Source: a phage. Taken from it: DNA of 64,000 nucleotides. This document shows, piece after piece, positions 2,372-49,367 of this stretch; the stretch's first letter is position 1; each line of letters opens with the position of its first letter. The position numbers were made by a program, and so were the translations under genes. The notes below the pieces were generated by a model, which saw nothing but the letters and a program-made list of their open reading frames with translations, did no database searches and was not told the origin of the DNA. The DNA is taken from assembly GCA_012225525.1 (NCBI GenBank), contig GCA_012225525.1_3923.1; one strand, 5' to 3'.

Positions 2372-3412
2372 ATGGAGAAGTACACATTAACAAAGCTTCC
2401 CGATTCAGTTACACATGTCTTTATTGACTCTGACAGCATTGCCTATAAAGGTGCTTGTGTAGTTGAGAAAGCAAAGTATAAATACGTTAATAAACTCACA
2501 GCAGAAGAATCTGAACCATTTGATAATGCGAAAGATGCTGCAAGATGGTTAGCAGACCAGAGAATCCTTGTGGAAGAGCTTGGCCTGACATTTGATGAAG
2601 ATGAATGGGAAAGACAGACTTGGAAAGAAGCTAAGAGTGAAAAAGAAGCTATCATGGCTACTCAACAGGTGCTTCAGGAATGGCTTAAGGTTGTTGGGAA
2701 AGAGAGAACTTGGGTAGGCTATTTAACAGAGAAAGGTGTGCATAAACATAAAGACGTTAAAGGTCTTGAGCACCAATATCAAGGCAACCGTAAAGATGCT
2801 GTCACACCAACACACTTAGTTGCTTGTCGTGAATACCTTCTGTCAAGACCAGAGTTTAAGCTCTTAAAGGGGGGCTTCGAAGCCGATTCAATCGTAATCG
2901 CTAAAGCTGAAAAGATGGGTAAGAAAGCTGCTCTTATGAGTATTGACAAAGACCTTCGACAAGCTGAAGGAACTTATTGTATTGATATGACTTATGAAAA
3001 GTCACCACTAATTTTTATTGCTGACAATAATGTTGGTGATATCTGGGATTGCCCTATCAAATCAAAACCAAAAGCTGCAAAAACAGTTGGCGTAGGTTTT
3101 AAATTCTTGTGTTATCAGGCTGTTGCTGGAGATAATGCAGACAACTACTTCGGCCTAAAAGGTGCTGGTAAAGTAGCTGTGATGAATGCTTTAGAGGGTA
3201 AAGAGACCTACAAAGAGTGTCTTGACGCTATCTATGAACTTTATGCTAAAAAAGATTCTTATACCTATGTGTCATGGGATGGACAGACTGTTACCAAAAC
3301 ACCATTAGAGTTAATGGAACAGCATTTCTGGATAGCATATCAAGAGAGAAATCCAAAAGACAATTTCTCTTTCAAGAAATATAATTGGGAGCCGTGTATG
3401 AATGAAGATTAA
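2372..3412 (+). CDS. 5'-3' exonuclease / flap endonuclease (FEN, RNase H-like)
   Basis: N-terminal HVFIDSDSIAYKG, GGFEADSIVIA and AGDNADNYFGLKGAGKVA motifs typical of PIN/H3TH 5' nucleases. Confidence 0.65.
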   Translation: MEKYTLTKLPDSVTHVFIDSDSIAYKGACVVEKAKYKYVNKLTAEESEPFDNAKDAARWLADQRILVEELGLTFDEDEWERQTWKEAKSEKEAIMATQQVLQEWLKVVGKERTWVGYLTEKGVHKHKDVKGLEHQYQGNRKDAVTPTHLVACREYLLSRPEFKLLKGGFEADSIVIAKAEKMGKKAALMSIDKDLRQAEGTYCIDMTYEKSPLIFIADNNVGDIWDCPIKSKPKAAKTVGVGFKFLCYQAVAGDNADNYFGLKGAGKVAVMNALEGKETYKECLDAIYELYAKKDSYTYVSWDGQTVTKTPLELMEQHFWIAYQERNPKDNFSFKKYNWEPCMNED

Positions 3413-38903: not shown

Positions 38904-38931
38904 AGCTTTCTCCTTAGAAAATAAAAAAGGC

Positions 38932-38954
38932 TCCCGAAGGAGCCTATGAAGATA
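38932..38954 (-). terminator. intrinsic terminator after endolysin gene
   Basis: Minus-strand AGGCTCC-TTCG-GGAGCCT followed by TTTTTT. Confidence 0.55.
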
Positions 38955-39419
38955 TTACTTTGGGTATACACTGTCAAGATAAATGTCAGCTTCCATTCTA
39001 CGTCTGTTTTTCAGACCGTTTGAAGTGACCTTCTTACCTTTGACTGTAACCTTGTTCCACCACTGCATAGCTTCTGCACAACCTACCTTATTACCGGCAT
39101 TGTGGCGCTTGATAAATGTGGAATCCTGCATAGCTGTGATACCGATGTTGTATGTTTCACTTACAAGTGCATCGAACTCATTCTGAGTAGTTGGAACCTT
39201 GATAGCTTTGTTCACTGCTGCAACAAACTTCTCAACATCCGCGAGAAGATACTGTTCAGCTTGTTCAGCAGTAATTTTCATACCCATCTTAACAGGTTTT
39301 CCGTCAATACGGATTGTCCCATACCCGATTGTTGGGATTCCGGCAGAATCTTCGTAAGCCTCTAACTCCAGACCTTCGAAGAACTTAATAGCATCTAAAC
39401 CTTTTCTTGAGAGTTGCAT
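38955..39419 (-). CDS. endolysin, phage lysozyme (GH24 muramidase-like)
   Basis: LELEAYEDSAGIPTIGYGT motif typical of T4/lambda-type lysozymes; 154 aa. Confidence 0.7.
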   Translation of the reverse strand: MQLSRKGLDAIKFFEGLELEAYEDSAGIPTIGYGTIRIDGKPVKMGMKITAEQAEQYLLADVEKFVAAVNKAIKVPTTQNEFDALVSETYNIGITAMQDSTFIKRHNAGNKVGCAEAMQWWNKVTVKGKKVTSNGLKNRRRMEADIYLDSVYPK

Positions 39420-40552
39420 TACGCCTCCCCTGCTGGGTTAACTGTAACTGTTGCTGCATTGGATGTTACAGAGCCACCTGCACCAGTAACTACACAGGTG
39501 TAGCTTCCTGCATCAGCAGCGGTCGCACCTTCTTTGGTGTAAGTTGCAGTAGTTGCATCAAGGATGTCTTCCTCACCTTTCTTCCACTGGTAACCTGTCG
39601 CACCTGTTGCCACAACATTCAGCGTTAAGGTCTCACCTTCATTGATTTCTTGATTGGTTGGCTGTTGAGTGATTACCGGAAGTGCGTTAACAGTAACCGT
39701 TGCAGGGCTAGAAGTGACAGAACCACCTGCACCTGTTACAACGCAAGTGTATGAACCTGCATCTGCTGGCAGAGCACCAGACTTACTATAGGTTGCATCT
39801 GTAGCCGAAGGAATGTCAGAGCCATCTTTCTTCCACTGATAACCTGTTGCACCTGTTGCAGTCACTTCCAAGTTGATGTTTCCACCCTCATTGACGGTCT
39901 GACCAGAAGGTTGCTGTGTAATAACAGGCAGTGCGTTGACAGTAACTGTTGCCGCATCTGAGGTAACACTTGTCCCAGCCTCTCCAGACACAACACAAGT
40001 ATAAGAACCAGCATCAGAAGGTGCTACAGATTGTTTTGTGTAGGTTGCAGATGTGGCGCTAGTGATATCCTCACCATCCTTTTTCCATTGATATCCAGTG
40101 GCATTGGTTGCAATAACGCTTAGGGTAAGTGTATCACCTTCATTTACTGTTTGATTGGTTGGTTGCTGAGTGATTGATGGTGGCTTGATAGCATCCTTCA
40201 ACTTAGCATTCAACATTGAGAATGGTTTAACTCTTGCCAGCCATTCACAATAAACTGTATCAACGTCTTTACCATTGATAATTGCATATTGTAAGTCCAT
40301 GAAGAAGTCAGAAGTTCTCATTTGAGCACCAACGCTGTAAAGCAACTCATCACTAAATGGGACTTTGTAGTCTGGTTTGTAGTCAAACTTCTCAACTTCT
40401 GCAATATCAGCTTCAGGCCAATACGAGCTATAGGTGAGTGGTAAAATAGCCTCTTGATATGTTCTAAAATCATATCTCTTACCAGCCTTTACATTTGCAA
40501 TGAAGCCCTTCACAAACTCTTTGAAGTCTGGGTAAGTCTTTGCTTTAATCAT
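39419..40552 (-). CDS. protein with N-terminal unknown domain and three C-terminal Ig-like repeats
   Basis: Three tandem ~90-aa repeats each with QQPTNQTVNEG...ATGYQWKKDG...DAGSYTCVV (I-set-like pattern). Confidence 0.6.
   Translation of the reverse strand: MIKAKTYPDFKEFVKGFIANVKAGKRYDFRTYQEAILPLTYSSYWPEADIAEVEKFDYKPDYKVPFSDELLYSVGAQMRTSDFFMDLQYAIINGKDVDTVYCEWLARVKPFSMLNAKLKDAIKPPSITQQPTNQTVNEGDTLTLSVIATNATGYQWKKDGEDITSATSATYTKQSVAPSDAGSYTCVVSGEAGTSVTSDAATVTVNALPVITQQPSGQTVNEGGNINLEVTATGATGYQWKKDGSDIPSATDATYSKSGALPADAGSYTCVVTGAGGSVTSSPATVTVNALPVITQQPTNQEINEGETLTLNVVATGATGYQWKKGEEDILDATTATYTKEGATAADAGSYTCVVTGAGGSVTSNAATVTVNPAGEA
39422..40180 (-). repeat. three tandem ~280-bp coding repeats (Ig-like domains)
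   Basis: Repeated nucleotide blocks; antisense ORF 39407..39628 is a by-product. Confidence 0.65.
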
Positions 40553-40920
40553 TTCTTTTCAGCCTCTAAATGTGCGTTTAGCCTAAAATAACCTTTGTGA
40601 TTCGGAGATACATCACCAACAACAATACCTTTAACCTTATAACCTTTACCAATTACATACTGGATATCCATAAGGAATCTTCCAAGACCAACAATATGGA
40701 ACATTGGATATAATAGATTCTCAGAGTCTGGAATATTGATTTCAGGTTTGTAGGTGCGTTGTTCGCTTGTTGGTGTAATATCTTCTTCAGGCCATTTACT
40801 GAGTCTCCATGTCAAAGGTGTTGGGATAACATCATTAAGGTTGTACCTTTCACCATTTTGCACGGAATTGATATAGGATTGTAGGAAGCAATAAAAGTCT
40901 TTTGCACTCTTAGCTTTCAT
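40549..40920 (-). CDS. paralog of the N-terminal domain of the Ig-repeat protein
   Basis: LMDIQYVI vs FMDLQYAI and similar overall pattern; 123 aa. Confidence 0.45.
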   Translation of the reverse strand: MKAKSAKDFYCFLQSYINSVQNGERYNLNDVIPTPLTWRLSKWPEEDITPTSEQRTYKPEINIPDSENLLYPMFHIVGLGRFLMDIQYVIGKGYKVKGIVVGDVSPNHKGYFRLNAHLEAEKK

Positions 40921-40967
40921 TAAATATCCTTATAAATAGTTAAAGGGGCATCAGCCCCTATTCACAC

Positions 40968-41558
40968 TTAAGCTTTGGTCTTAAGTAGGTTCTTAAGTTT
41001 TTTAAGATTCATACTCTCATCAAACTTAAAACCAAATCCATTGACATAATCAATGAACTCGGATTTCTTACTGAGTGACAATGCGTAACTCATATCAAAG
41101 TTCTTACTTGTTTCTGCGTCTGGACTAGAGTTCACATCAAATGAAATTTCTGTAGGCTCCTGCTTACTTTTTCTCATATTATCAACCAACAAACATGTAT
41201 AGTTTGCTGGATAGAAATTTACACTACCATCAACGTAGCTGTACTTATTATTATGGATAAGGTTGGAAAATACCTTAAGGAATGTTTCTGAGTCGTGGCA
41301 AACAAGTTTGAATTGGCTGCTCTCTCCAAGCGCAACTAATGAATACGGACTTTCACTATCAAAGTCATAATTTGGATTAGATGCCGTCACTGTTACACGC
41401 ATCAAGTTATTAGCAATAGTCTTCTGTTTAAAAGAATTTTGAACATAGTGAAGACCTCTATCACACTGATTGACTAGCTCTTTAAGAAGGTCATTTGCAT
41501 ATGGTGAATTAATTGATACAGAGCCATCACTATTGTAATTAAAACTTACTGTTAACAT
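40968..41558 (-). CDS. hypothetical protein
   Basis: Track ORF, 196 aa. Confidence 0.45.
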   Translation of the reverse strand: MLTVSFNYNSDGSVSINSPYANDLLKELVNQCDRGLHYVQNSFKQKTIANNLMRVTVTASNPNYDFDSESPYSLVALGESSQFKLVCHDSETFLKVFSNLIHNNKYSYVDGSVNFYPANYTCLLVDNMRKSKQEPTEISFDVNSSPDAETSKNFDMSYALSLSKKSEFIDYVNGFGFKFDESMNLKKLKNLLKTKA

Positions 41559-42630: not shown

Positions 42631-44046
42631 ATGAGCGAATTATTTAAACATGCGCACCTTCATGCAGGTCGAACTGAAAATGGTGCTGTAAACCATACTT
42701 CATCAATGTCTACTCTTGTAGACTTTTACAAAGCTGCTGGTTCAAGCCGTAGCAATGTAGAAATCTTACCAGACTTGTTCTACAAAGCTTTGCGTGAGGA
42801 TGTTGATGTTGCAGTTCGTATTTTACTGCATATGCGAGATGTACGAGAAGGCATGGGTGAGCGTAAAGCCTTCAGAACTGTTTTGCTTCAAGCGATTGAA
42901 GATGAAGTTTTAGAGCCTACGCAGGTTCTTCGCATTATGGATAAGATTGCAGAACTTGGTCGTTTTGATGACTTCAAAATCTTTGTAGGTACTCGTTTCG
43001 AGACAGATGCCTTCAAGCATTTAGAAGCAGCATTACTAGACCCTGCAACAGCAGGTTTGGCGGCTAAGTGGTTACCACGAGTCAAACCACGTCATAAGCA
43101 GTTTGTAAAACGTTTCTGCAAGTTTGCCAACTTGAGTGAGAAAGAGTACCGCACACTGTTGTCTGCACTATCTGATACAGTTGAGCAAAAAATCTCTGCT
43201 AATGAGTTTGGTAAGATTGACTACAGTAAGATTCCTTCACTTGCTGCTGCACGTTACCAAAAACTGTTTAACCGTAAAGATGGAGAGCGTTACAAAGCTT
43301 ACATCGAGTCCTTATCAAAAGGTGAGACTAAGATTAACGCTGGTGCTGTTTACCCATACGATGTGATTAAATCTTTCAAGTATGGTAATGCAGATGTTGC
43401 TAATGAGCAGTGGAAAGCACTACCAAACTGGATGGCAGAAGGTGAAAACATCTTGTGTATGTCTGATGTATCAAGTTCAATGTCTTGGGTGAATTTTGGC
43501 TCCATTACTGCTCTGGATATTGGTGTATCACTTGCCTTGTATGTAGCAGAACGCAATACAGGTTGCTTTAAGAATGAGTTGATGGTTTATTCGACAAACC
43601 CTCACTTCATCGAACTGAGTGGTGATTTACGAAACCGTCATCGTCAGGTGATGCGACACGTTGAATATGGCTCAACTAACTTACAAGCAGCTTTTGACCG
43701 CATTCTTGAAACAGGTAAAAGAAACAACTTGACTCAGAAAGATATGCCAAGTAAGCTTATCATCTTCTCCGATATGGAGTTCAATCAGGTTGATGGAGCT
43801 AACGGTCGTACAAACTTTGAAGCAATTCAGAGTAAGTACAAAAAAGCTGGATATGAGATGCCACAACTGGTATTCTGGTACTTAGCAAACCGTAATGGTA
43901 CTTGCGAAGTATCTGTTAAGGATAACGGTGTAGCAATGGTATCAGGGTTCTCTCCAGCCACTTTAAAAGCTCTGCTTGGTGGTGAGAAGTTTGACCCAAT
44001 CAGTGTAATGCTCAAAGCAGTAATGATTGACCGTTATATCTGGTAA
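42631..44046 (+). CDS. von Willebrand factor A (vWA) domain protein with MIDAS motif
   Basis: DVSSSMS (DxSxS) MIDAS motif about residue 280; 471 aa; sits immediately upstream of the tRNA array. Confidence 0.5.
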   Translation: MSELFKHAHLHAGRTENGAVNHTSSMSTLVDFYKAAGSSRSNVEILPDLFYKALREDVDVAVRILLHMRDVREGMGERKAFRTVLLQAIEDEVLEPTQVLRIMDKIAELGRFDDFKIFVGTRFETDAFKHLEAALLDPATAGLAAKWLPRVKPRHKQFVKRFCKFANLSEKEYRTLLSALSDTVEQKISANEFGKIDYSKIPSLAAARYQKLFNRKDGERYKAYIESLSKGETKINAGAVYPYDVIKSFKYGNADVANEQWKALPNWMAEGENILCMSDVSSSMSWVNFGSITALDIGVSLALYVAERNTGCFKNELMVYSTNPHFIELSGDLRNRHRQVMRHVEYGSTNLQAAFDRILETGKRNNLTQKDMPSKLIIFSDMEFNQVDGANGRTNFEAIQSKYKKAGYEMPQLVFWYLANRNGTCEVSVKDNGVAMVSGFSPATLKALLGGEKFDPISVMLKAVMIDRYIW

Positions 44047-44211: not shown

Positions 44212-44288
44212 CTCTGTTTAGCTCAGCTTGGTAGAGCGTTCCGTTTGGGGCGGTAAGGCCGGAGGTTCAAGTCCTCCAACAGAGACCA
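44212..44288 (+). tRNA. tRNA-Pro (anticodon TGG)
   Basis: Manual cloverleaf; T-arm GGAGG-TTCAAGT-CCTCC; CCA encoded. Confidence 0.7.
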
Positions 44289-44295
44289 AATTAAT

Positions 44296-44373
44296 GTTCC
44301 AGTAGACAAAATGGTAAAGTCACCACTCTTTCAAAGTGGATATCTGAGGGTTCAAATCCCTTCTGGAACGCCA
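44296..44373 (+). tRNA. tRNA-Glu (anticodon TTC)
   Basis: Acceptor GTTCCAG/CTGGAAC; anticodon loop CTTTCAA. Confidence 0.7.
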
Positions 44374-44463
44374 GTTTTGACAGAAGACCAATTACAGCAA
44401 ACTTAATCTACTCATCTGAAAGTTAATCGGACAAAGAAGATATTTGGTCTGGTCATTAAGAAT

Positions 44464-44540
44464 TGCGGGTATAGAGAAAGGGCGTCTCACATGTCTCATT
44501 AGCATGGTATCGGCAGGTTCGACTCCTGCACCCGCCTCCA
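44464..44540 (+). tRNA. tRNA-like element, anticodon arm unresolved
   Basis: Perfect T-arm GCAGG-TTCGACT-CCTGC and CCA end; internal GTCTCA duplication. Confidence 0.3.
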
Positions 44541-44623
44541 AATTTACAGAAGACCGTTTACAGCAATATTTATTAAATTTTTAGCGGAAAAATTGAAAGA
44601 TACGGTCTGGTAATACTAAACAT

Positions 44624-44700
44624 GGTTAGGAAGCACATAAGGTATGTGCGGTCGCCTGTTAAGCGAATGGCACAGGGTTCGAATCCCTGACTAACCGCCA
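44624..44700 (+). tRNA. tRNA-Asn (anticodon GTT)
   Basis: Anticodon loop CTGTTAA; T-arm CAGGG-TTCGAAT-CCCTG. Confidence 0.7.
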
Positions 44701-44769
44701 AATTTAGGAGAGAAGCGATTGCTCACCGATTTGTAAGGTGCAAGTCCTTAGCCTGAATAGAAATCAAAT

Positions 44770-44857
44770 GTGTCGTTATCCCGTAGATGGTAGCGGTGGG
44801 GACTGTAAATCCCTTGTCATTGAGACTCGGTAGGTTCGACTCCTACACGGCACACCA
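44770..44857 (+). tRNA. tRNA-Tyr (anticodon GTA), long variable arm
   Basis: Anticodon loop CTGTAAA; 88 nt. Confidence 0.7.
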
Positions 44858-44863
44858 AATAAA

Positions 44864-44941
44864 GGTTATGTAGTTTAATCTGGTTAAAATACTCCCCTGT
44901 CACGGGAGATGATGAGGGTTCAAATCCCTTCATAACCGCCA
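44864..44941 (+). tRNA. tRNA-Asp (anticodon GTC)
   Basis: Acceptor GGTTATG/CATAACC; anticodon stem-loop CTCCC-CTGTCAC-GGGAG. Confidence 0.75.
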
Positions 44942-45370
44942 ATTTTGAGAGGGCTATTTAGCCCCTCCCTTAAAGAGTTCTTACGAGTATTCTTTAAAGG
45001 AGCAGAAGACCAAATACAGCAAGAATGTATGAAATTTCAAGCCAATTCAATTTTGAAAATTTAAAACTTGGTCTGGCTCAACAAATTTACAGAAGACCGT
45101 TTACAGCAAAACTTAAACAATCTATTTCTCCGGTAAAGAAAAGGCGAAGGTTCGATTCCTTCACTCGGCAGATGTCGAGTTGGTGTAATGGTAGCACTTA
45201 AGATGATAAACAACGGTCTGGTAATTATCTTTGTAGATAAGTTATTAAGCTTACCTGTGAGTATGCGACCACAAAGGGTGAAAGGGTAAATTCTAGATTT
45301 AAACCCAAAAAGGCACATCGCTACAGACCTTAAGCAAGTCTGGGTAGCTTATCTACAAAGATAATTTAAT

Positions 45371-45446
45371 GGAAGTGTAGCAGAATGGTGATGCGGCAGA
45401 CTTTTAATCTGACAGGCGATGGGTTCGAATCCCTCCACTTCTACCA
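45371..45446 (+). tRNA. tRNA-Lys (anticodon TTT)
   Basis: Anticodon loop CTTTTAA; T-loop TTCGAAT. Confidence 0.65.
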
Positions 45447-45524
45447 AATTCACCCTTAACTGAGAAACACCTGCGCGGCTGGAAACACCCACTCAACAGT
45501 TTCTCTAACTAGGGTACTTATTCT

Positions 45525-45601
45525 GGTTCAGTCGCAGATAAGGTAATGCAAGGGTCTCATAAGCCCTATGAATGTGGGTTCGATTCCCATCTGAACCTCC
45601 A
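45525..45601 (+). tRNA. tRNA-Met or Ile2 (anticodon CAT)
   Basis: Acceptor GGTTCAG/CTGAACC; anticodon loop CTCATAA. Confidence 0.7.
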
Positions 45602-45602
45602 A

Positions 45603-45678
45603 GCTGGTATAGTTAAGAAGGTTATAACACTCCCCTGATAAGGGAACATCGGTGGTTCGATTCCACCTACCAGTACCA
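45603..45678 (+). tRNA. tRNA-Ile (anticodon GAT)
   Basis: Anticodon loop CTGATAA; T-arm GGTGG-TTCGATT-CCACC. Confidence 0.7.
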
Positions 45679-45693
45679 ATTTCAATAAAGTTG

Positions 45694-45722
45694 TTGACAT
45701 TGAGATGTGACTACTTTATAGT
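45694..45722 (+). promoter_or_regulatory. sigma70-like promoter inside tRNA array
   Basis: TTGACA-17-TATAGT. Confidence 0.5.
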
Positions 45723-45924
45723 AACCTTAGTTTTCGTTGCGTAGCGTCTATTTTGCAAATTTAAAATAAATGCAAACGACAATGTTTTTCTGGCAGTAGC
45801 TTGATAGGCTAAACACCAGTGAGGTCTTCCAATCCCTCATCAAAGAATTTGGCGTACTCGCCCACGGTATGATTAATAAGGTGGGCATCTTTAAGGGCTT
45901 TCTAAGAGAGTCTTTAAAGATAAT

Positions 45925-46001
45925 GCACCCTTAGTTCAATTGGATAGAGCAACGGTCTTCTAAATCGTTAGTTACAGGTTCGAATCCTGTAGGGTGTACC
46001 A
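45925..46001 (+). tRNA. tRNA-Arg (anticodon TCT)
   Basis: Anticodon loop CTTCTAA; T-arm ACAGG-TTCGAAT-CCTGT. Confidence 0.7.
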
Positions 46002-46143
46002 AATAGTTAGCAGATTACTTAGACGGCCTTAGCGGGTCTTCCTGTAGGGAGGTGGTCTGTATCTCATGTTTTCCAGAACATGTAAATAATCTGAGAAGAA
46101 GCTTGACAGTGTTGAGATAACAGGGTAAGCTTCGAATTATAAT

Positions 46144-46226
46144 ATGGGACGATGTTAAGACTCTAAGGCATGAGCAACGGCCTCCAAAACCGTTTCAAAG
46201 GGGTTCAACTCCTCCGTCCCATGCCA
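46144..46226 (+). tRNA. tRNA, probably Trp (anticodon CCA), atypically long D region
   Basis: Perfect acceptor ATGGGAC/GTCCCAT, CCA end, candidate loop CTCCAAA; 83 nt. Confidence 0.4.
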
Positions 46227-46239
46227 AAGTCTTATTAGG

Positions 46240-46327
46240 GGTAGGTAGCGGCTAATGGCAGCCAAACAGTCTTGAAAACTGTTGCCACTGTAGAGATACG
46301 GTGAGGGTTCGACTCCTTTACTTACCG
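46240..46327 (+). tRNA. tRNA-Ser (anticodon TGA), long variable arm
   Basis: Anticodon stem-loop ACAGT-CTTGAAA-ACTGT. Confidence 0.7.
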
Positions 46328-46483
46328 CCTAATAAGATTTACTCCGTCCATGCTTGTTCGCATTGTCGGTTTATCCCTCGTGTATTGTCGTACACTGTCA
46401 AAGCACCTAGTAGGTGTCACGGAGAAGAGATAATATCAAGCTCTCCAAAGGTTCTAGTCACCGGATTAAACAAGACTATGCAA

Positions 46484-46503
46484 AGACCTATTTAGGTCTT
46501 TTT
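46484..46503 (+). terminator. intrinsic terminator within tRNA region
   Basis: AGACCT-ATTT-AGGTCT followed by TTTT. Confidence 0.5.
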
Positions 46504-46582
46504 AGAGGGCTTCTAAGGTTATTACAGCTTGTTGTGGAACCTTGTTGCTTAGGTTCTTAGAAGTTCTCTAAAAAGATTTAAT

Positions 46583-46660
46583 GGGAGATTGACGGTAATT
46601 GGTAAACCTACCATCCTTAGAAGTTGGTGTTTGAGGGTTCGAATCCCTTGTCTCCCACCA
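46583..46660 (+). tRNA. tRNA with anticodon TAG (Leu-type) but short variable loop
   Basis: Anticodon loop CTTAGAA; discriminator A; 5-nt variable loop. Confidence 0.55.
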
Positions 46661-46667
46661 AATTAAT

Positions 46668-46743
46668 GCAGGTGTAGCAAAATGGTTATGCGGCTGACTC
46701 TTAATCAGTAAGACGATGGGTTCAATTCCCTCCACCTGTACCA
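46668..46743 (+). tRNA. tRNA-Lys (anticodon CTT)
   Basis: Anticodon loop CTCTTAA. Confidence 0.65.
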
Positions 46744-46749
46744 AACAAT

Positions 46750-46825
46750 GGGGTCATAGTTTATATGGTTAAAATTCGAGTTTTGCAAACTTGGGAACTG
46801 AGTTCAATTCTCAGTGACTCCACCA
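46750..46825 (+). tRNA. tRNA-Ala (anticodon TGC)
   Basis: Anticodon loop TTTGCAA; T-arm CTGAG-TTCAATT-CTCAG. Confidence 0.7.
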
Positions 46826-46831
46826 ATTAGT

Positions 46832-46906
46832 GCATCCATAGTTTAAACGGGAAAATTACAGTCTTCCAAACTGAGGTTGAGGGTTCGATTCCCTCTGGAT
46901 GCTCCA
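46832..46906 (+). tRNA. tRNA-Gly (anticodon TCC)
   Basis: Acceptor GCATCCA/TGGATGC; anticodon loop CTTCCAA. Confidence 0.7.
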
Positions 46907-46913
46907 AATTAAT

Positions 46914-46989
46914 GCTCCTATCGTATAATTGGCTATTACGGTTGCCTTGTAAGTAACTTATCAGGGTTCGAATCCTTGTGGGAGCACCA
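46914..46989 (+). tRNA. tRNA-Thr (anticodon TGT)
   Basis: Anticodon stem-loop GTTGC-CTTGTAA-GTAAC. Confidence 0.7.
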
Positions 46990-47085
46990 ATTTAGAGGTC
47001 AAGTGAAAGACCGCTTTGAGTCAACTGAAGACCGTAACAAATCCCACGGAGTTGAGTTAGCGGAACAACTTCAGACCTCTTTCAT
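46990..47085 (+). ncRNA. candidate structured spacer RNA
   Basis: Closing inverted repeat AGAGGTC...GACCTCT enclosing TGAAGACCGTAACAAATCC. Confidence 0.3.
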
Positions 47086-47160
47086 ACTCGCTTAGTTTAT
47101 ATGGTAAAACATCACCCTTACAAGATGAAGAAAAAGGTTCAAGTCCTTTAGTGAGTACCA
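47086..47160 (+). tRNA. tRNA-Val (anticodon TAC)
   Basis: Anticodon loop CTTACAA; T-arm AAAGG-TTCAAGT-CCTTT. Confidence 0.6.
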
Positions 47161-47161
47161 T

Positions 47162-47239
47162 GTTCCAGTATCCCAATTGGCAGAGGATGCAAGCTCAAAC
47201 CTTGTACTAGTGACGGTTCGAATCCGTCTTGGAACACCA
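47162..47239 (+). tRNA. tRNA with anticodon CAA (Leu-type) but short variable loop
   Basis: Anticodon stem-loop GCAAG-CTCAAAC-CTTGT; 6-nt variable loop; discriminator A. Confidence 0.55.
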
Positions 47240-47255
47240 ATTTTAGGAGAACACT

Positions 47256-47363
47256 ATGAGTAATAAATCAATTGCAAAAAAGTTTATAGCGTCATTCAAA
47301 AACAGGCGTAAAAACAACTCTTGTGAAAAACTGTATGGTGTTCTTGTAGGTAAGCAGGATTAG
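47256..47363 (+). CDS. very small ORF (35 aa) with strong RBS inside tRNA array
   Basis: TAGGAGAACACTATG; stop overlaps 5' end of the next tRNA. Confidence 0.2.
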   Translation: MSNKSIAKKFIASFKNRRKNNSCEKLYGVLVGKQD

Positions 47364-47429
47364 TTCAAATGGATAGAGCAACAGTCTACGAAGCTGTTAA
47401 TAGGGGTTCGAATCCCTTATCCTGCGCCA
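47354..47429 (+). tRNA. tRNA-Arg (anticodon ACG)
   Basis: Perfect acceptor GCAGGAT/ATCCTGC; anticodon loop CTACGAA. Confidence 0.7.
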
Positions 47430-47448
47430 ATTTAAAGAGGCTATTTAA

Positions 47449-48006
47449 ATGAGATACTTGAAGTATGCTTCATGGATTTTCTTAGCTTTGCTAGAGCCAT
47501 TGGCAGCAATCTTAGCAGTTATCTTAGCACCTTTTGTAGTTCCATTTTACAGTGAGAAGAAAGGACACTTACCTTTTGGATTCAGATGGATGGAGACATA
47601 TGACAACCCGATTGATGGTGATGAAGGTCACGTTAAAAGATGGGCTAAGATTAGAAAGATTGGTAAGCTTGGTGTCTATTTGCAGAGAGTTGGATGGCTC
47701 TGGAGAAACAAAGCTTATAACTTCTCTTACCATGTGTTAGGAAGAGATGTAAAAGATGTTACTAAGTGGAAAGGCAATATCAACGTAAGTTCTGACCCTG
47801 AAGATAATCAGACAGGTTATCTCCTAATGTGGAACAGTAATGCTTGGGGATTATTCGCTTTTATCCCATCAATTAAAGTCTTTGGTAAACAATTCTACTG
47901 GAGAATTTATGTTGGATGGAAGCTAAAAAGTGTTGTCCCAGAAGAAAGAGCATTCTCAAGGGAAAGAGTTATGTTGGCATTCTTTATTCATCCACTGAGA
48001 AAGTAA
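47449..48006 (+). CDS. membrane protein embedded in tRNA array
   Basis: 185 aa; N-terminal hydrophobic segments. Confidence 0.5.
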   Translation: MRYLKYASWIFLALLEPLAAILAVILAPFVVPFYSEKKGHLPFGFRWMETYDNPIDGDEGHVKRWAKIRKIGKLGVYLQRVGWLWRNKAYNFSYHVLGRDVKDVTKWKGNINVSSDPEDNQTGYLLMWNSNAWGLFAFIPSIKVFGKQFYWRIYVGWKLKSVVPEERAFSRERVMLAFFIHPLRK

Positions 48007-48014
48007 AGATTTAA

Positions 48015-48090
48015 AGGGGATTAGTTTACAAGGTTAAAACCTCGGTCTTTGAAATCGAAGAAGTTGGTTCAATTCCAACATCCCCCGCCA
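48015..48090 (+). tRNA. tRNA-Gln (anticodon TTG)
   Basis: Anticodon stem-loop TCGGT-CTTTGAA-ATCGA; T-arm GTTGG-TTCAATT-CCAAC. Confidence 0.65.
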
Positions 48091-48092
48091 AT

Positions 48093-48171
48093 GCTCCATT
48101 ACTCCAATTGGCAGAGAGGCCAGACTTAAAATCTGTGTTATGTATCGGTTCGAATCCGATATGGAGTACCA
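48093..48171 (+). tRNA. tRNA with anticodon TAA (Leu-type) but short variable loop
   Basis: Anticodon loop CTTAAAA; 7-nt variable loop; discriminator A. Confidence 0.55.
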
Positions 48172-48176
48172 AATTT

Positions 48177-48252
48177 AGCGGTATAGCATAACTGGCAATG
48201 CAGCAGTCTCTGAAGCTGTCTTATTAAGGTTCAAATCCTTATGCCGCTGCCA
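48177..48252 (+). tRNA. tRNA-Gln (anticodon CTG)
   Basis: Anticodon loop CTCTGAA; T-arm TAAGG-TTCAAAT-CCTTA. Confidence 0.65.
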
Positions 48253-48283
48253 CTTCTAAGGATTCTTACGAGAGTCCTTAAAT

Positions 48284-48359
48284 GTGGCCTTATCATAAAT
48301 GGTAATGACCCATGCTGTGAACATGGTCTATACGGGTTCAAATCCCGTAGGTCACCCCA
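48284..48359 (+). tRNA. tRNA-His (anticodon GTG)
   Basis: Anticodon stem-loop CCATG-CTGTGAA-CATGG. Confidence 0.7.
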
Positions 48360-48364
48360 ATTTA

Positions 48365-48439
48365 TAGTCCAAGTAGCTTATATGGTTAAAGCGCGTGTCT
48401 GAAAAACATGAGAAGAGGGTTCAAATCCCACTGGACTAC
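48365..48439 (+). tRNA. tRNA-Phe (anticodon GAA), CCA not encoded
   Basis: Acceptor TAGTCCA/TGGACTA; anticodon loop CTGAAAA. Confidence 0.65.
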
Positions 48440-48457
48440 CAATTTCAAAGGTGCTTA

Positions 48458-49192
48458 ATGAAAGAGATGACAGAACAAGGTAAGGAGATTTTTAATCTCT
48501 TAAAAACTGGTAAAGGGTTTTCTAACCCCCTTATTACTGGTGCAGCAGTTCTCGGTGGAACCGTAGCTGCCTCTACATCACTTGTAAGCTCTATTAGTTC
48601 TGTATCAGACCCTACAGTAAAGGATAAGCTTGTTGCTGCTGGACTTACAACAGTTCTGCTTAACAGCTTTACCACGAGTCTGACAAGCACTACATCAACT
48701 ACCAAAACACTGACAGATTACGGTCAAAAGTCCATTGATGAGTTTTCATCACGTATGCAGGTAGCAAAAGGTTATTCTAATGTTATGGGTGCAGCAGGTG
48801 AACAAGTTGGCTGTACACCATTTAGTGGTATTATGGGTGTTGCTACAGAGTATGGTCAAAAAGCTATTGATATGATTAACAGTGCACTAGACGGTGTTAA
48901 TGATGTATTAAGTGACTTACAAGACGCTATTGACAAAGGTCTTGATACTATTTCTGATTTAGCTAACCAAGCTGTTAGTAAGATTAATGAAGGTATCTCG
49001 AAGATTACAGCTTATGCAGATGAAGTTGTGCAGATGATTGAAGAAGAAGCTGCCCTTATTGCAGAGTACCTTAAAACGAATATCAATGGGTTCTTAGCAG
49101 GTATCTTACCAGACTGGTTTGATGATGCTTGTAAAACTGGTGTAATTGACACTATTGCAACACCAGAAATGAAGAACGCATTACAGAAATAA
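48458..49192 (+). CDS. Ser/Thr-rich hypothetical protein
   Basis: ATG 48458 after AAAGG; track start 48395 lies inside tRNA-Phe. Confidence 0.5.
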   Translation: MKEMTEQGKEIFNLLKTGKGFSNPLITGAAVLGGTVAASTSLVSSISSVSDPTVKDKLVAAGLTTVLLNSFTTSLTSTTSTTKTLTDYGQKSIDEFSSRMQVAKGYSNVMGAAGEQVGCTPFSGIMGVATEYGQKAIDMINSALDGVNDVLSDLQDAIDKGLDTISDLANQAVSKINEGISKITAYADEVVQMIEEEAALIAEYLKTNINGFLAGILPDWFDDACKTGVIDTIATPEMKNALQK

Positions 49193-49194
49193 AT

Positions 49195-49287
49195 GGAAGA
49201 TTAACCCTAAAAGGTAAGGGAGCAGTTTGCTAAACTGCCAGTAGCTGAGAAATCGGTGTACCAGTTCAAGTCTGGTATCTTCCTCCA
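49195..49287 (+). tRNA. tRNA-Ser (anticodon GCT), long variable arm
   Basis: Perfect acceptor GGAAGAT/ATCTTCC; anticodon stem-loop GCAGT-TTGCTAA-ACTGC. Confidence 0.75.
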
Positions 49288-49291
49288 ATTT

Positions 49292-49367
49292 GAATCCGTG
49301 ACAGAAATGGCTATGTGCCTGTCTGCAAAACAGGTTTATAAGGGTTCGAGTCCCTTCGGATTCTCCA
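49292..49367 (+). tRNA. tRNA-Cys (anticodon GCA)
   Basis: Perfect acceptor GAATCCG/CGGATTC; anticodon stem-loop CCTGT-CTGCAAA-ACAGG. Confidence 0.75.

Follow-up and report, generated by a model that had tools for sequence, protein, structure and literature searches.

The window analysed here, a 64,000-nucleotide stretch of phage DNA, belongs to a Felixounavirus, with 98% identity to phage LMP34 and 96% to wV8. We focused on three consecutive genes on its minus strand: a 123-aa ORF (40549-40920), a 377-aa ORF with immunoglobulin (Ig)-like repeats (39419-40552), and a GH24 endolysin gene (38955-39419; PF00959, E 4.5e-41; phrog_7 endolysin). The two ORFs lie exactly where an earlier note on this DNA had placed them. 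On the basis of homology, the 377-aa product is Hex-Dec, a Hoc-like hexamer decoration protein, and the 123-aa product is a paralog of the capsid-binding domain (CapBD) at the N-terminus of Hex-Dec.

The three genes are closely packed. The stop codon of the paralog and the start codon of Hex-Dec share the 4-nt sequence ATGA (40549-40552, minus strand; junction AAGAAATGATTAAA), and the endolysin start overlaps the Hex-Dec stop (TAATG in the junction sequence). The same 4-nt overlap is found in 20 of the 25 related IMG/VR loci in which both genes are intact, as well as in the VpaE1 and Sf14 records, and translational coupling from the paralog to Hex-Dec is a possible consequence. A programmed frameshift producing a paralog-Hex-Dec fusion was also considered and set aside: a TGA occurs in the Hex-Dec frame 9 nt before the ATG, the junction contains no canonical slippery heptamer, and the virion mass spectrometry (MS) table of Felix O1 gives gp36 its unfused predicted mass (PMC3185647). 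The three-gene unit is closed 3′ of the endolysin gene by an intrinsic terminator detected in the terminator scan (38928-38945, minus strand; hairpin of -12.9 kcal/mol, z -4.1, followed by a U-run), and the wV8 annotation has a terminator at this place. In the gap between the paralog and the next gene upstream, a GC hairpin, GGGGC-UGAU-GCCCC (40945-40958, minus strand; fold of -13.5 kcal/mol, z -2.45), lies 25 nt 5′ of the paralog start codon. This hairpin lacks the T-run required by the scan and is an annotated terminator in wV8; it is a weak terminator.

Identity and architecture of Hex-Dec

Judged by its sequence, the 377-aa gene is the Felixounavirus Hex-Dec, orthologous to Bas63 Hex-Dec and Sf14 gp20. 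Residues 1-372 align end to end with PDB chains 9ncf_S (Bas63 Hex-Dec; E 1.3e-285) and 9c2d_S (Sf14 gp20; E 6.8e-168) in phmmer searches, the protein matches phrog_3995 with an E of 4e-209, and its wV8 and LMP34 orthologs are 94-98% identical to it. We found no evidence contradicting this assignment. The Ig-repeat gene is therefore an ordinary one, already characterised as encoding a head-decoration protein of Felix O1-type phages: placement of the orthologs on the capsid by cryo-EM (Bas63 and Sf14) and their detection by virion MS (Sf14, and Felix O1 gp36 at 44% coverage; PMC3185647) have been published.

The protein begins with the CapBD (aa 1-123; 40184-40552, minus strand), which corresponds residue by residue (1:1) to what has been modelled of 9ncf_S and 9c2d_S and is slightly shorter than the 125 aa proposed in the earlier note. 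Three Ig repeats follow on the same strand, at aa 124-207 (39932-40183), aa 208-290 (39683-39931) and aa 291-373 (39434-39682). Pfam recognises three stretches each of Ig_3 (E 1.7e-34) and I-set (E 8e-27); the AF2 model shows beta-sandwiches with a pLDDT of 92-97 across residues 125-373 (94-95 in repeat 1); the coordinates of all three repeats come from the repeat alignment; and Foldseek retrieved tandem Ig arrays, namely titin I67-I69, Robo1 and LRIG1, with E values down to 1.8e-21. The three I-set-like units suspected from the sequence pattern are thus borne out by Pfam, structure prediction and Foldseek, which agree on an Ig fold, but each unit measures 83-84 aa rather than about 90. The units share 71-72% identity in protein and 62-68% in DNA (protein-guided alignment), and because the DNA has diverged to this extent, Tandem Repeats Finder reported no array of ~250 bp in the window. 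This divergence, together with the occurrence of the same three-repeat gene in many independent genomes, disposes of the concern that the repeats are an assembly artefact.

The number of repeats in relatives, a comparison that the earlier note had proposed, proved to be variable. Among 26 related loci, Hex-Dec carries one Ig copy in 4, two in 11, three in 9 and four in 2, and the variants differ from the window by insertions or deletions of whole units at differing in-register junctions; Ig repeat 2 is the unit missing in the two-Ig variants. These observations indicate that Ig copy number shifts via in-register recombination between repeat units, and they confirm that the length of the Ig fibre on Felix O1-type heads changes by this simple route. 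Both the variation from one to four Ig domains and the location of the gene outside the structural module were published in 2025, in the Sf14 and Bas63 papers.

The CapBD of the window is ~97% identical to that of Bas63 over residues 1-123 and contains Arg79 and Arg107, which are invariant among 27 aligned sequences. In Sf14 gp20, these two residues form salt bridges with the major capsid protein at Asp221 (PMC11821841), and they would anchor the window protein to Asp221 in the same way. The AF2 models of the CapBD are poor (pLDDT 30-55 for the domain in Hex-Dec; 63, a moderate value, for the paralog), and we drew no conclusions regarding interfaces from them. The two lobes with pseudo-C2 symmetry described in the Bas63 report have no counterpart in a detectable internal sequence repeat, either in the Hex-Dec CapBD or in the paralog. 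The geometry of capsid binding has been demonstrated for the Bas63 and Sf14 orthologs and is carried over to the window protein by orthology: on a T=9 head, each asymmetric unit would have one CapBD monomer, seated centrally in the pentamer-proximal hexamers, and the three flexible I-set domains would project outward from the capsid as a short fibre. By analogy with T4 Hoc, this fibre probably serves adhesion or aggregation.

Why, then, does a head protein lie beside an endolysin gene? The earlier note had remarked on this odd position, away from the structural genes, and the remark holds. The puzzle has already been solved in the literature, which describes Hex-Dec/gp20 as a component of the virion that is encoded over 10 kb away from the structural module (PMC12609058, PMC11821841). 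In Felix O1, transcription of ORFs 36 and 37, the orthologs of Hex-Dec and the paralog, is maximal late, at 60 min, alongside that of the structural genes (PMC3185647). Since the gene is transcribed late with the structural genes and encodes a virion protein, the expression 'non-structural block' used in the earlier note describes its position correctly and its product wrongly. The main feature of the locus therefore needs no new explanation, and its identification corrects a widespread mis-annotation. Most GenBank records call the Ig-repeat protein a 'tail protein' or 'HK97 major tail subunit', PHROG labels point the same way, and its Ig domains do resemble those appended to the major tail proteins of siphophages (phrog_158, T5 and Vibrio phages). 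However, the similarity to tail proteins is confined to the Ig domains (query residues 120-375), two cryo-EM structures resolve the N-terminal domain in place on the capsid, and the authors of the Bas63 study explicitly call the tail annotation wrong. A tail protein is thus refuted by 9NCF and 9C2D, and we assign next to no probability to it. As an account of the whole locus, Hex-Dec accompanied by a tandem duplicate of its CapBD is very probably correct.

A tandem paralog of the capsid-binding domain

The 123-aa ORF (40549-40920) is a true paralog, corresponding to the CapBD alone. It shares 37% identity with the N-terminal domain of Hex-Dec over 101 aa (BLASTP, E 9e-17), far beyond chance, and in tblastn searches of the window with either protein the sole match was the other one (E 1e-14). 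The proposal that these are tandem paralogs, the smaller corresponding to the N-terminal domain only, is therefore upheld; the likeness is not limited to the short motif that had been quoted in its favour, as residues 1-120 align across the entire CapBD. The paralog also matches residues 3-117 of 9ncf_S (E 1.2e-11), and the only PDB matches of its AF2 model in Foldseek are 9ncf_S and 9c2d_S (TM 0.62 and 0.65, probability 1.00), the next having an E of 0.87. Twenty-five invariant positions, most of them in the core, are common to the paralog and CapBD families. The ORF ends after the CapBD, contains no Ig display module and has no Pfam domain. When the paralog, Hex-Dec and the gene upstream were scanned against NCBIfam and PADLOC, nothing meaningful emerged. 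An inh-hoc-like cassette, suggested by a faint Phage_Inh_N Pfam match upstream of the CapBD gene in one related locus (L039), was dismissed after the match was not reproduced in six homologs at E<=10.

Orthologs of the paralog include wV8 gp42, Felix O1 gp37, Sf14 gp21 and VpaE1_040, and the paralog belongs to phrog_4463, to which PHROG assigns no function. A full-length copy is present in 233 of 253 phage records (~92%), and both the gene and the gene order are retained in a divergent metagenomic scaffold of 87 kb. Its dN/dS of ~0.125 at a dS of ~0.8 indicates that the amino-acid sequence is under purifying selection; across the same lineage split the paralog retains 45% identity and the CapBD 59%, so that the paralog is evolving faster. 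In our reading, the gene is an old duplicate, in tandem, of just the capsid-binding domain; it is transcribed late along with Hex-Dec, precedes the endolysin and has a stop codon that overlaps the start of Hex-Dec. In a neighbour-joining tree, weak support at the deep nodes prevented us from dating the duplication against the branches of Kolesnikvirus and LPML1. In the literature searched, we found no description of a CapBD-only copy, and the Bas63 and Sf14 cryo-EM papers do not mention the upstream gene.

Two features distinguish the paralog from the CapBD at the anchor positions: the residue aligned with Arg79 is an invariant Gly in every paralog, including the divergent P0098, and position 107 is variable (N/Q/H/R). 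The paralog is also missing from published virion inventories. Felix O1 gp37 is not among the 17 virion proteins listed, some of which are of 9.7-13.7 kDa, VpaE1_040 is not among the 22 listed for VpaE1, and gp21 is not listed from the virion MS of Sf14; the wV8 proteome paper concerns the tail fibre only, and literature searches for a Felixounavirus transcriptome and a UAB_Phi87 virion proteome gave nothing useful. These lists are compatible with a low copy number in virions. On the hexamers to which Hex-Dec is not bound, no density was reported in the cryo-EM of either Bas63 or Sf14. Finally, only a pseudogene of the paralog is left in Z31, L022 and REP11, in which Hex-Dec can stay intact, and the paralog is therefore dispensable both for growth and for the retention of Hex-Dec.

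Possible roles of the paralog

What might a capsid-binding domain do without its display module? We tentatively favour a role in head assembly, in which the paralog would bind hexamers or the procapsid as an Ig-less protein, perhaps plugging them transiently or acting as a competitor and in this way helping to set the site and number of the Ig fibres attached, and would be lost from the mature virion or kept there at low copy only; we hold this with less than even confidence. A broader scheme of two-component decoration, in which a late, Ig-less 'blank' plug accompanies a 'flagged' plug and sets the restricted pattern and number of Ig fibres on the T=9 head, is conceivable but rather doubtful. 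Under this scheme, the paralog would occupy hexamer centres either transiently, in the procapsid, or stably, on the twenty 3-fold hexamers. A stable form of occupancy, in which the paralog is a low-copy virion protein that caps the twenty 3-fold-axis hexamers devoid of Hex-Dec, would agree with its CapBD fold and late expression. In Sf14, moreover, the 3-fold hexamers show a shifted Asp221 geometry that disfavours gp20 (PMC11821841), and the paralog differs precisely at the Arg79 position; twenty copies of a 14-kDa protein could escape stringent shotgun MS, and icosahedral averaging would smear a monomer sitting on a 3-fold axis. Nevertheless, no density has been reported on these hexamers in Bas63 or Sf14, the paralog is missing from three virion lists in which similarly small proteins were detected, and it has been lost in viable phages, and we regard such a cap as improbable.

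The loss of the Arg79 anchor could instead mean that the fold was kept while capsid binding disappeared, the protein being re-purposed to bind another phage or host protein late in infection; it might, for instance, accompany Hex-Dec itself as its chaperone or partner, or serve as a decoy for a host defence by which head proteins are sensed. The faster yet still constrained evolution of the paralog, its family-specific conserved surface motifs (e.g., FYCFLQ, HIVGLG and GDVSPxHKGYF) and its absence from the virion lists all fit this idea. Against it, the paralog matches no defence, anti-defence or other family model, its gene context points to no partner except Hex-Dec, and LPML1, a true Hex-Dec homolog, likewise has Gly at the Arg79 position, which indicates that capsid binding does not strictly depend on Arg79; we therefore think re-purposing unlikely, though it deserves some weight. 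There is even less to recommend the notion that the ORF is a translated leader that feeds ribosomes to a weak Hex-Dec start, its product being minor or a decaying duplicate. In its favour, conservation extends to the ATGA overlap, the Shine-Dalgarno sequence of the paralog is good (AAGGA) where Hex-Dec has just a distant GAGG, and the pseudogenes of Z31 and L022 keep the 3′ end that includes the Hex-Dec Shine-Dalgarno region. However, the dN/dS value reflects selection at the amino-acid level, length and fold are retained between lineages that are only 45% identical, and Hex-Dec is intact where the paralog ORF has been destroyed and its start codon lost, which makes a mere leader highly improbable.

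If the paralog binds hexamers, as the favoured assembly role supposes, it would explain the restriction of Hex-Dec to a subset of hexamers, and it would constitute a naturally occurring anchor without Ig domains, of use where T=9 capsids serve for phage display or as vaccine scaffolds. A paralog that does not bind would be a case of a structural domain recruited to a late function outside the virion.

Comparison with known decoration systems

The closest known systems are Bas63 Hex-Dec (9NCF chain S) and Sf14 gp20 (9C2D/9C3A chain S), orthologs that have the same CapBD, Arg79, Arg107 and I-set units and whose genes occupy the same slot as in the window, between the small paralog and the endolysin. 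The number of Ig domains, three in the window and in Sf14 and four in Bas63, is the sole difference from Bas63. Farther away, P104_00380 of the Kolesnikvirus phiEa104, LPML1_00060 of a 'Listeria' phage and the metagenomic proteins P0102-P0104 share the CapBD and the slot just upstream of a lysozyme gene, but they carry other display modules, namely non-I-set domains of bacterial-Ig type or a Lys/Ser-rich tail, and the upstream paralog is absent.

Among other phages, T5 pb10 (5LXK, 8ZVI) resembles the window protein in having a capsid-binding domain at its N-terminus and a C-terminal Ig domain and in its location at hexamer centres. Similarity to the Ig domains of the window protein can be detected in that of pb10 (E 2.6e-11). 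There is just one Ig domain in pb10, however, and its capsid-binding domain is unrelated, giving no match to residues 1-123 of the window protein. The likeness to T4 Hoc extends further: both are dispensable monomers at hexamer centres, with a string of Ig domains that extends from a small capsid-binding domain and varies in number among relatives (PMC12609058, PMC11821841). However, the domain order is reversed. The capsid-binding domain is C-terminal in Hoc and N-terminal in the window protein, which ends in an Ig domain and does not contain the Hoc capsid-binding domain; PHROG 'Hoc-like' matches are limited to the Ig region (residues 121-290); and, according to the published comparison, the Hex-Dec CapBD is larger than and topologically distinct from that of Hoc, with minimal sequence similarity. 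Unlike Hoc, Hex-Dec also occupies only a subset of hexamers. Given its N-terminal CapBD, its distinct topology and the restriction of Hoc matches to the Ig domains, we conclude that Hex-Dec works like Hoc and is not a member of the Hoc family.

A three-gene cassette in the leftward block

The window is from a Felixounavirus. Over a 2.1-kb region it shares 98% identity with Escherichia phages LMP25, LMP33 and LMP34 and 95.9% with wV8, and 248 phage records match this region. Among Felix O1-like (Ounavirinae) genomes, OK283618.1 (Listeria phage LPML1) and a single 'Staphylococcus' record are deposited under Gram-positive hosts, labels that look doubtful in this otherwise enterobacterial group.

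Three ORFs are arranged head to tail on the minus strand: a small gene of 123 aa (40549-40920), the Ig-repeat gene of 377 aa (39419-40552) and the gene of the GH24 lysozyme, the endolysin (38955-39419, 154 aa; PF00959, E 4.5e-41). The stop codon of the small gene overlaps the start of the Ig-repeat gene (ATGA), whose own stop overlaps the lysozyme start (TAATG). A terminator scan and folding revealed a strong intrinsic terminator after the lysozyme gene (38928-38945), and sequence and folding a weaker GC hairpin between the upstream gene and the trio (40945-40958); both are annotated as terminators in wV8. The leftward block ends near 42 kb and is followed by a rightward block with 26 tRNA genes at 44.2-49.4 kb, beyond which lie large rightward ORFs that we took to be morphogenesis genes. 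The small gene and the Ig-repeat gene are thus distant from the head and tail genes and run in the opposite direction; this bears out the earlier note, which had located the pair beside the endolysin in the leftward block. In Felix O1, RT-PCR showed that ORFs 36 and 37, the orthologs of the Ig-repeat gene and the small gene, peak at 60 min alongside the structural genes, and the lysin ORF 35 at 25 min (PMC3185647). We read the three genes as an accessory cassette expressed late.

The upstream gene (40968-41558, minus strand, 196 aa) corresponds to wV8 gp43 (phrog_4034, unknown function), and a gene of this type lies 5′ of the Ig-repeat slot in all Ounavirinae-like contexts examined, with or without the small gene. 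A precomputed 'faint' match of Phage_Inh_N to the gp43 homolog of the divergent contig L039 failed to recur in six homologs. On the plus strand, a 471-aa DUF2828-type protein ('RNA-binding protein' in wV8) is encoded at 42631-44046, directly 5′ of the tRNA cluster (44212-49367); a DUF5681/DUF2828 pair was found again in L039 and in another divergent contig, L037.

The Ig-repeat protein and its changing repeat number

A PDB sequence search matched the Ig-repeat protein to chain S of 9NCF, the 460-aa 'Immunoglobulin-like domain protein' of phage Bas63 (E 1.3e-285), and end to end to chain S of 9C2D/9C3A, Sf14 gp20 (E 6.8e-168). In these phages the N-terminal 118-120 or so residues form a capsid-binding domain (CapBD). 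Each asymmetric unit of the T=9 head has one such domain, bound as a monomer in the middle of a pentamer-proximal hexamer; the hexamers on the 3-fold axes have none. The flexible Ig domains could not be resolved (PMC12609058, PMC11821841). Salt bridges join Arg79 and Arg107 of the Sf14 protein to Asp221 of the capsid protein (PMC11821841), and the window protein retains both arginines. The gene lies >10 kb outside the structural module, is mis-annotated as 'tail protein' in most genomes, and is predicted to encode 1-4 Ig domains in Felixounavirus homologs (PMC12609058, PMC11821841). The Felix O1 ortholog, gp36, adjoins the lysin gp35 and was detected in virions with 44% coverage (PMC3185647). 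Because of the PDB matches, the published orthologs and the retained arginines, we regard the gene as an ordinary member of a characterised family of hexamer decoration proteins (Hex-Dec), the mechanism of which is established through its orthologs; the Ig-repeat protein, its capsid location, odd genomic position and variable repeat number are already known.

The three Ig-like repeats proposed from the sequence were recovered by Pfam Ig_3, Ig_2 and I-set, three stretches each (E 1.7e-34 to 8e-27), at aa 124-207, 208-290 and 291-373; the unit is 83-84 aa, rather than the ~90 aa first estimated. AlphaFold2 predicted three beta-sandwiches (pLDDT 92-97), in agreement with an Ig fold, and the best PDB matches of the model were tandem arrays of I-set domains, among them titin I67-I69, Robo1 and LRIG1 (E down to 1.8e-21). 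The units share 71-72% identity in protein and 62-68% in DNA, and are not an assembly artefact, a doubt the earlier note had raised. Its suggested comparison of related phages gave one Ig domain in four, two in 11, three in nine and four in two of 26 complete IMG/VR loci. Relative to the window gene, each variant has an insertion or deletion of exactly one or two units, with junctions at equivalent within-unit positions each time and at sites that vary between phages (for example Ig1:31/Ig3:32, Ig1:42/Ig3:42 and Ig1:79/Ig2:79, as well as one insertion after Ig2:76, numbered within units). These alignments suggest that units have recombined in register repeatedly and independently, a detail that extends the published picture of variable Ig number and leaves it unaltered.

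A CapBD-only paralog

The two proteins are indeed tandem paralogs, as had been proposed (37% identity across 101 aa, E 9e-17), and no further copy of either was found in the window. The small protein aligns with CapBD along its entire length, with 25 invariant, mostly core, positions in common, and matches residues 3-117 of 9ncf_S (E 1.2e-11). Its AlphaFold2 model, of only moderate confidence (pLDDT 63), matches 9ncf_S (TM 0.62) and 9c2d_S (TM 0.65) with probability 1.00 and no other PDB fold, the next match having E 0.87. It is labelled phrog_4463 (function unknown), and had no match in Pfam, NCBIfam or PADLOC; no other paper on it turned up in the literature searched.

By tblastn, the full-length paralog is present in 233 of 253 phage records (Felixounavirus, Mooglevirus and Suspvirus), always immediately 5′ of Hex-Dec. 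Searching 1.84 billion representative proteins with a profile gave only 12 clusters for the entire CapBD family, one of them a divergent paralog (P0098, 45% identity to that of the window) on an 87-kb metagenomic scaffold with the same order of paralog, Hex-Dec and lysozyme. The Hex-Dec slot is present, and the paralog absent, in Kolesnikvirus phiEa104, LPML1 and one more metagenomic lineage. Distant CapBD-family proteins with other C-terminal modules occupy this slot before lysozyme in L039 (4001-4462), L032 (2941-3555) and L034 (4001-4966); those of Kolesnikvirus and LPML1 carry bacterial-Ig-type domains, and that of a metagenomic lineage (P0104, 153 aa) a Lys/Ser-rich low-complexity tail.

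Felixounavirus paralogs (L004-L031) form two allele groups, with ~97-100% and ~84-88% identity to that of the window. The groups track the allele of gp43 upstream and are not mirrored in the neighbouring CapBD, which stays at 95-99%, suggesting that a recombination boundary lies at or close to the junction between paralog and Hex-Dec.

What the paralog might do

Several observations speak against the paralog being just a second decoration protein. Its ortholog is not among the 17 proteins listed for the Felix O1 virion, the smallest down to 9.7 kDa, nor (as VpaE1_040) among the 22 listed for VpaE1, whose list adds only gp54, gp58 and gp68 to that of Felix O1. The Sf14 ortholog, gp21, is unmentioned in the Sf14 paper (PMC11821841). 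Neither cryo-EM study reported density on the remaining hexamers (PMC12609058, PMC11821841). The Arg79 position is an invariant Gly in every paralog and position 107 is variable; because the LPML1 Hex-Dec homolog shares this Gly, the loss of Arg79 is suggestive only. Some phages carry the paralog only as a pseudogene: Z31, REP11 and the IMG/VR genome L022 have lost its start codon and ~223 bp internally (at 2805-3000 in Shigella phage Z31, 2808-3000 in L022 and 1305-1498 in REP11), and Hex-Dec can stay intact beside it (210 or 293 aa); apparently ~19 of the 253 records are of this type. In this minority Felixounavirus lineage the pseudogene also has frameshifts, a 192-nt gap remains, and Hex-Dec and lysin are kept; the Z31 Hex-Dec is annotated as two ORFs (134 and 55 aa).

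We tentatively favour, at somewhat below an even chance, an Ig-less binder of hexamers or procapsids that would act during head assembly and would not be retained in virions. A re-purposed late protein with a non-capsid role is a less probable alternative. It is improbable that the paralog caps the twenty 3-fold hexamers at low copy number. More improbable still is that the overlapping ORF serves as a coupling leader with a product of little importance, a reading disfavoured by the paralog's median dN/dS of 0.125 (CapBD, 0.045; lysin, 0.077; Ig1, 0.107).

The paralog is a small, testable loose end and not a new kind of system. Hex-Dec itself works like Hoc of phage T4; however, the two are not homologous, their domain order is reversed and their capsid-binding folds differ.
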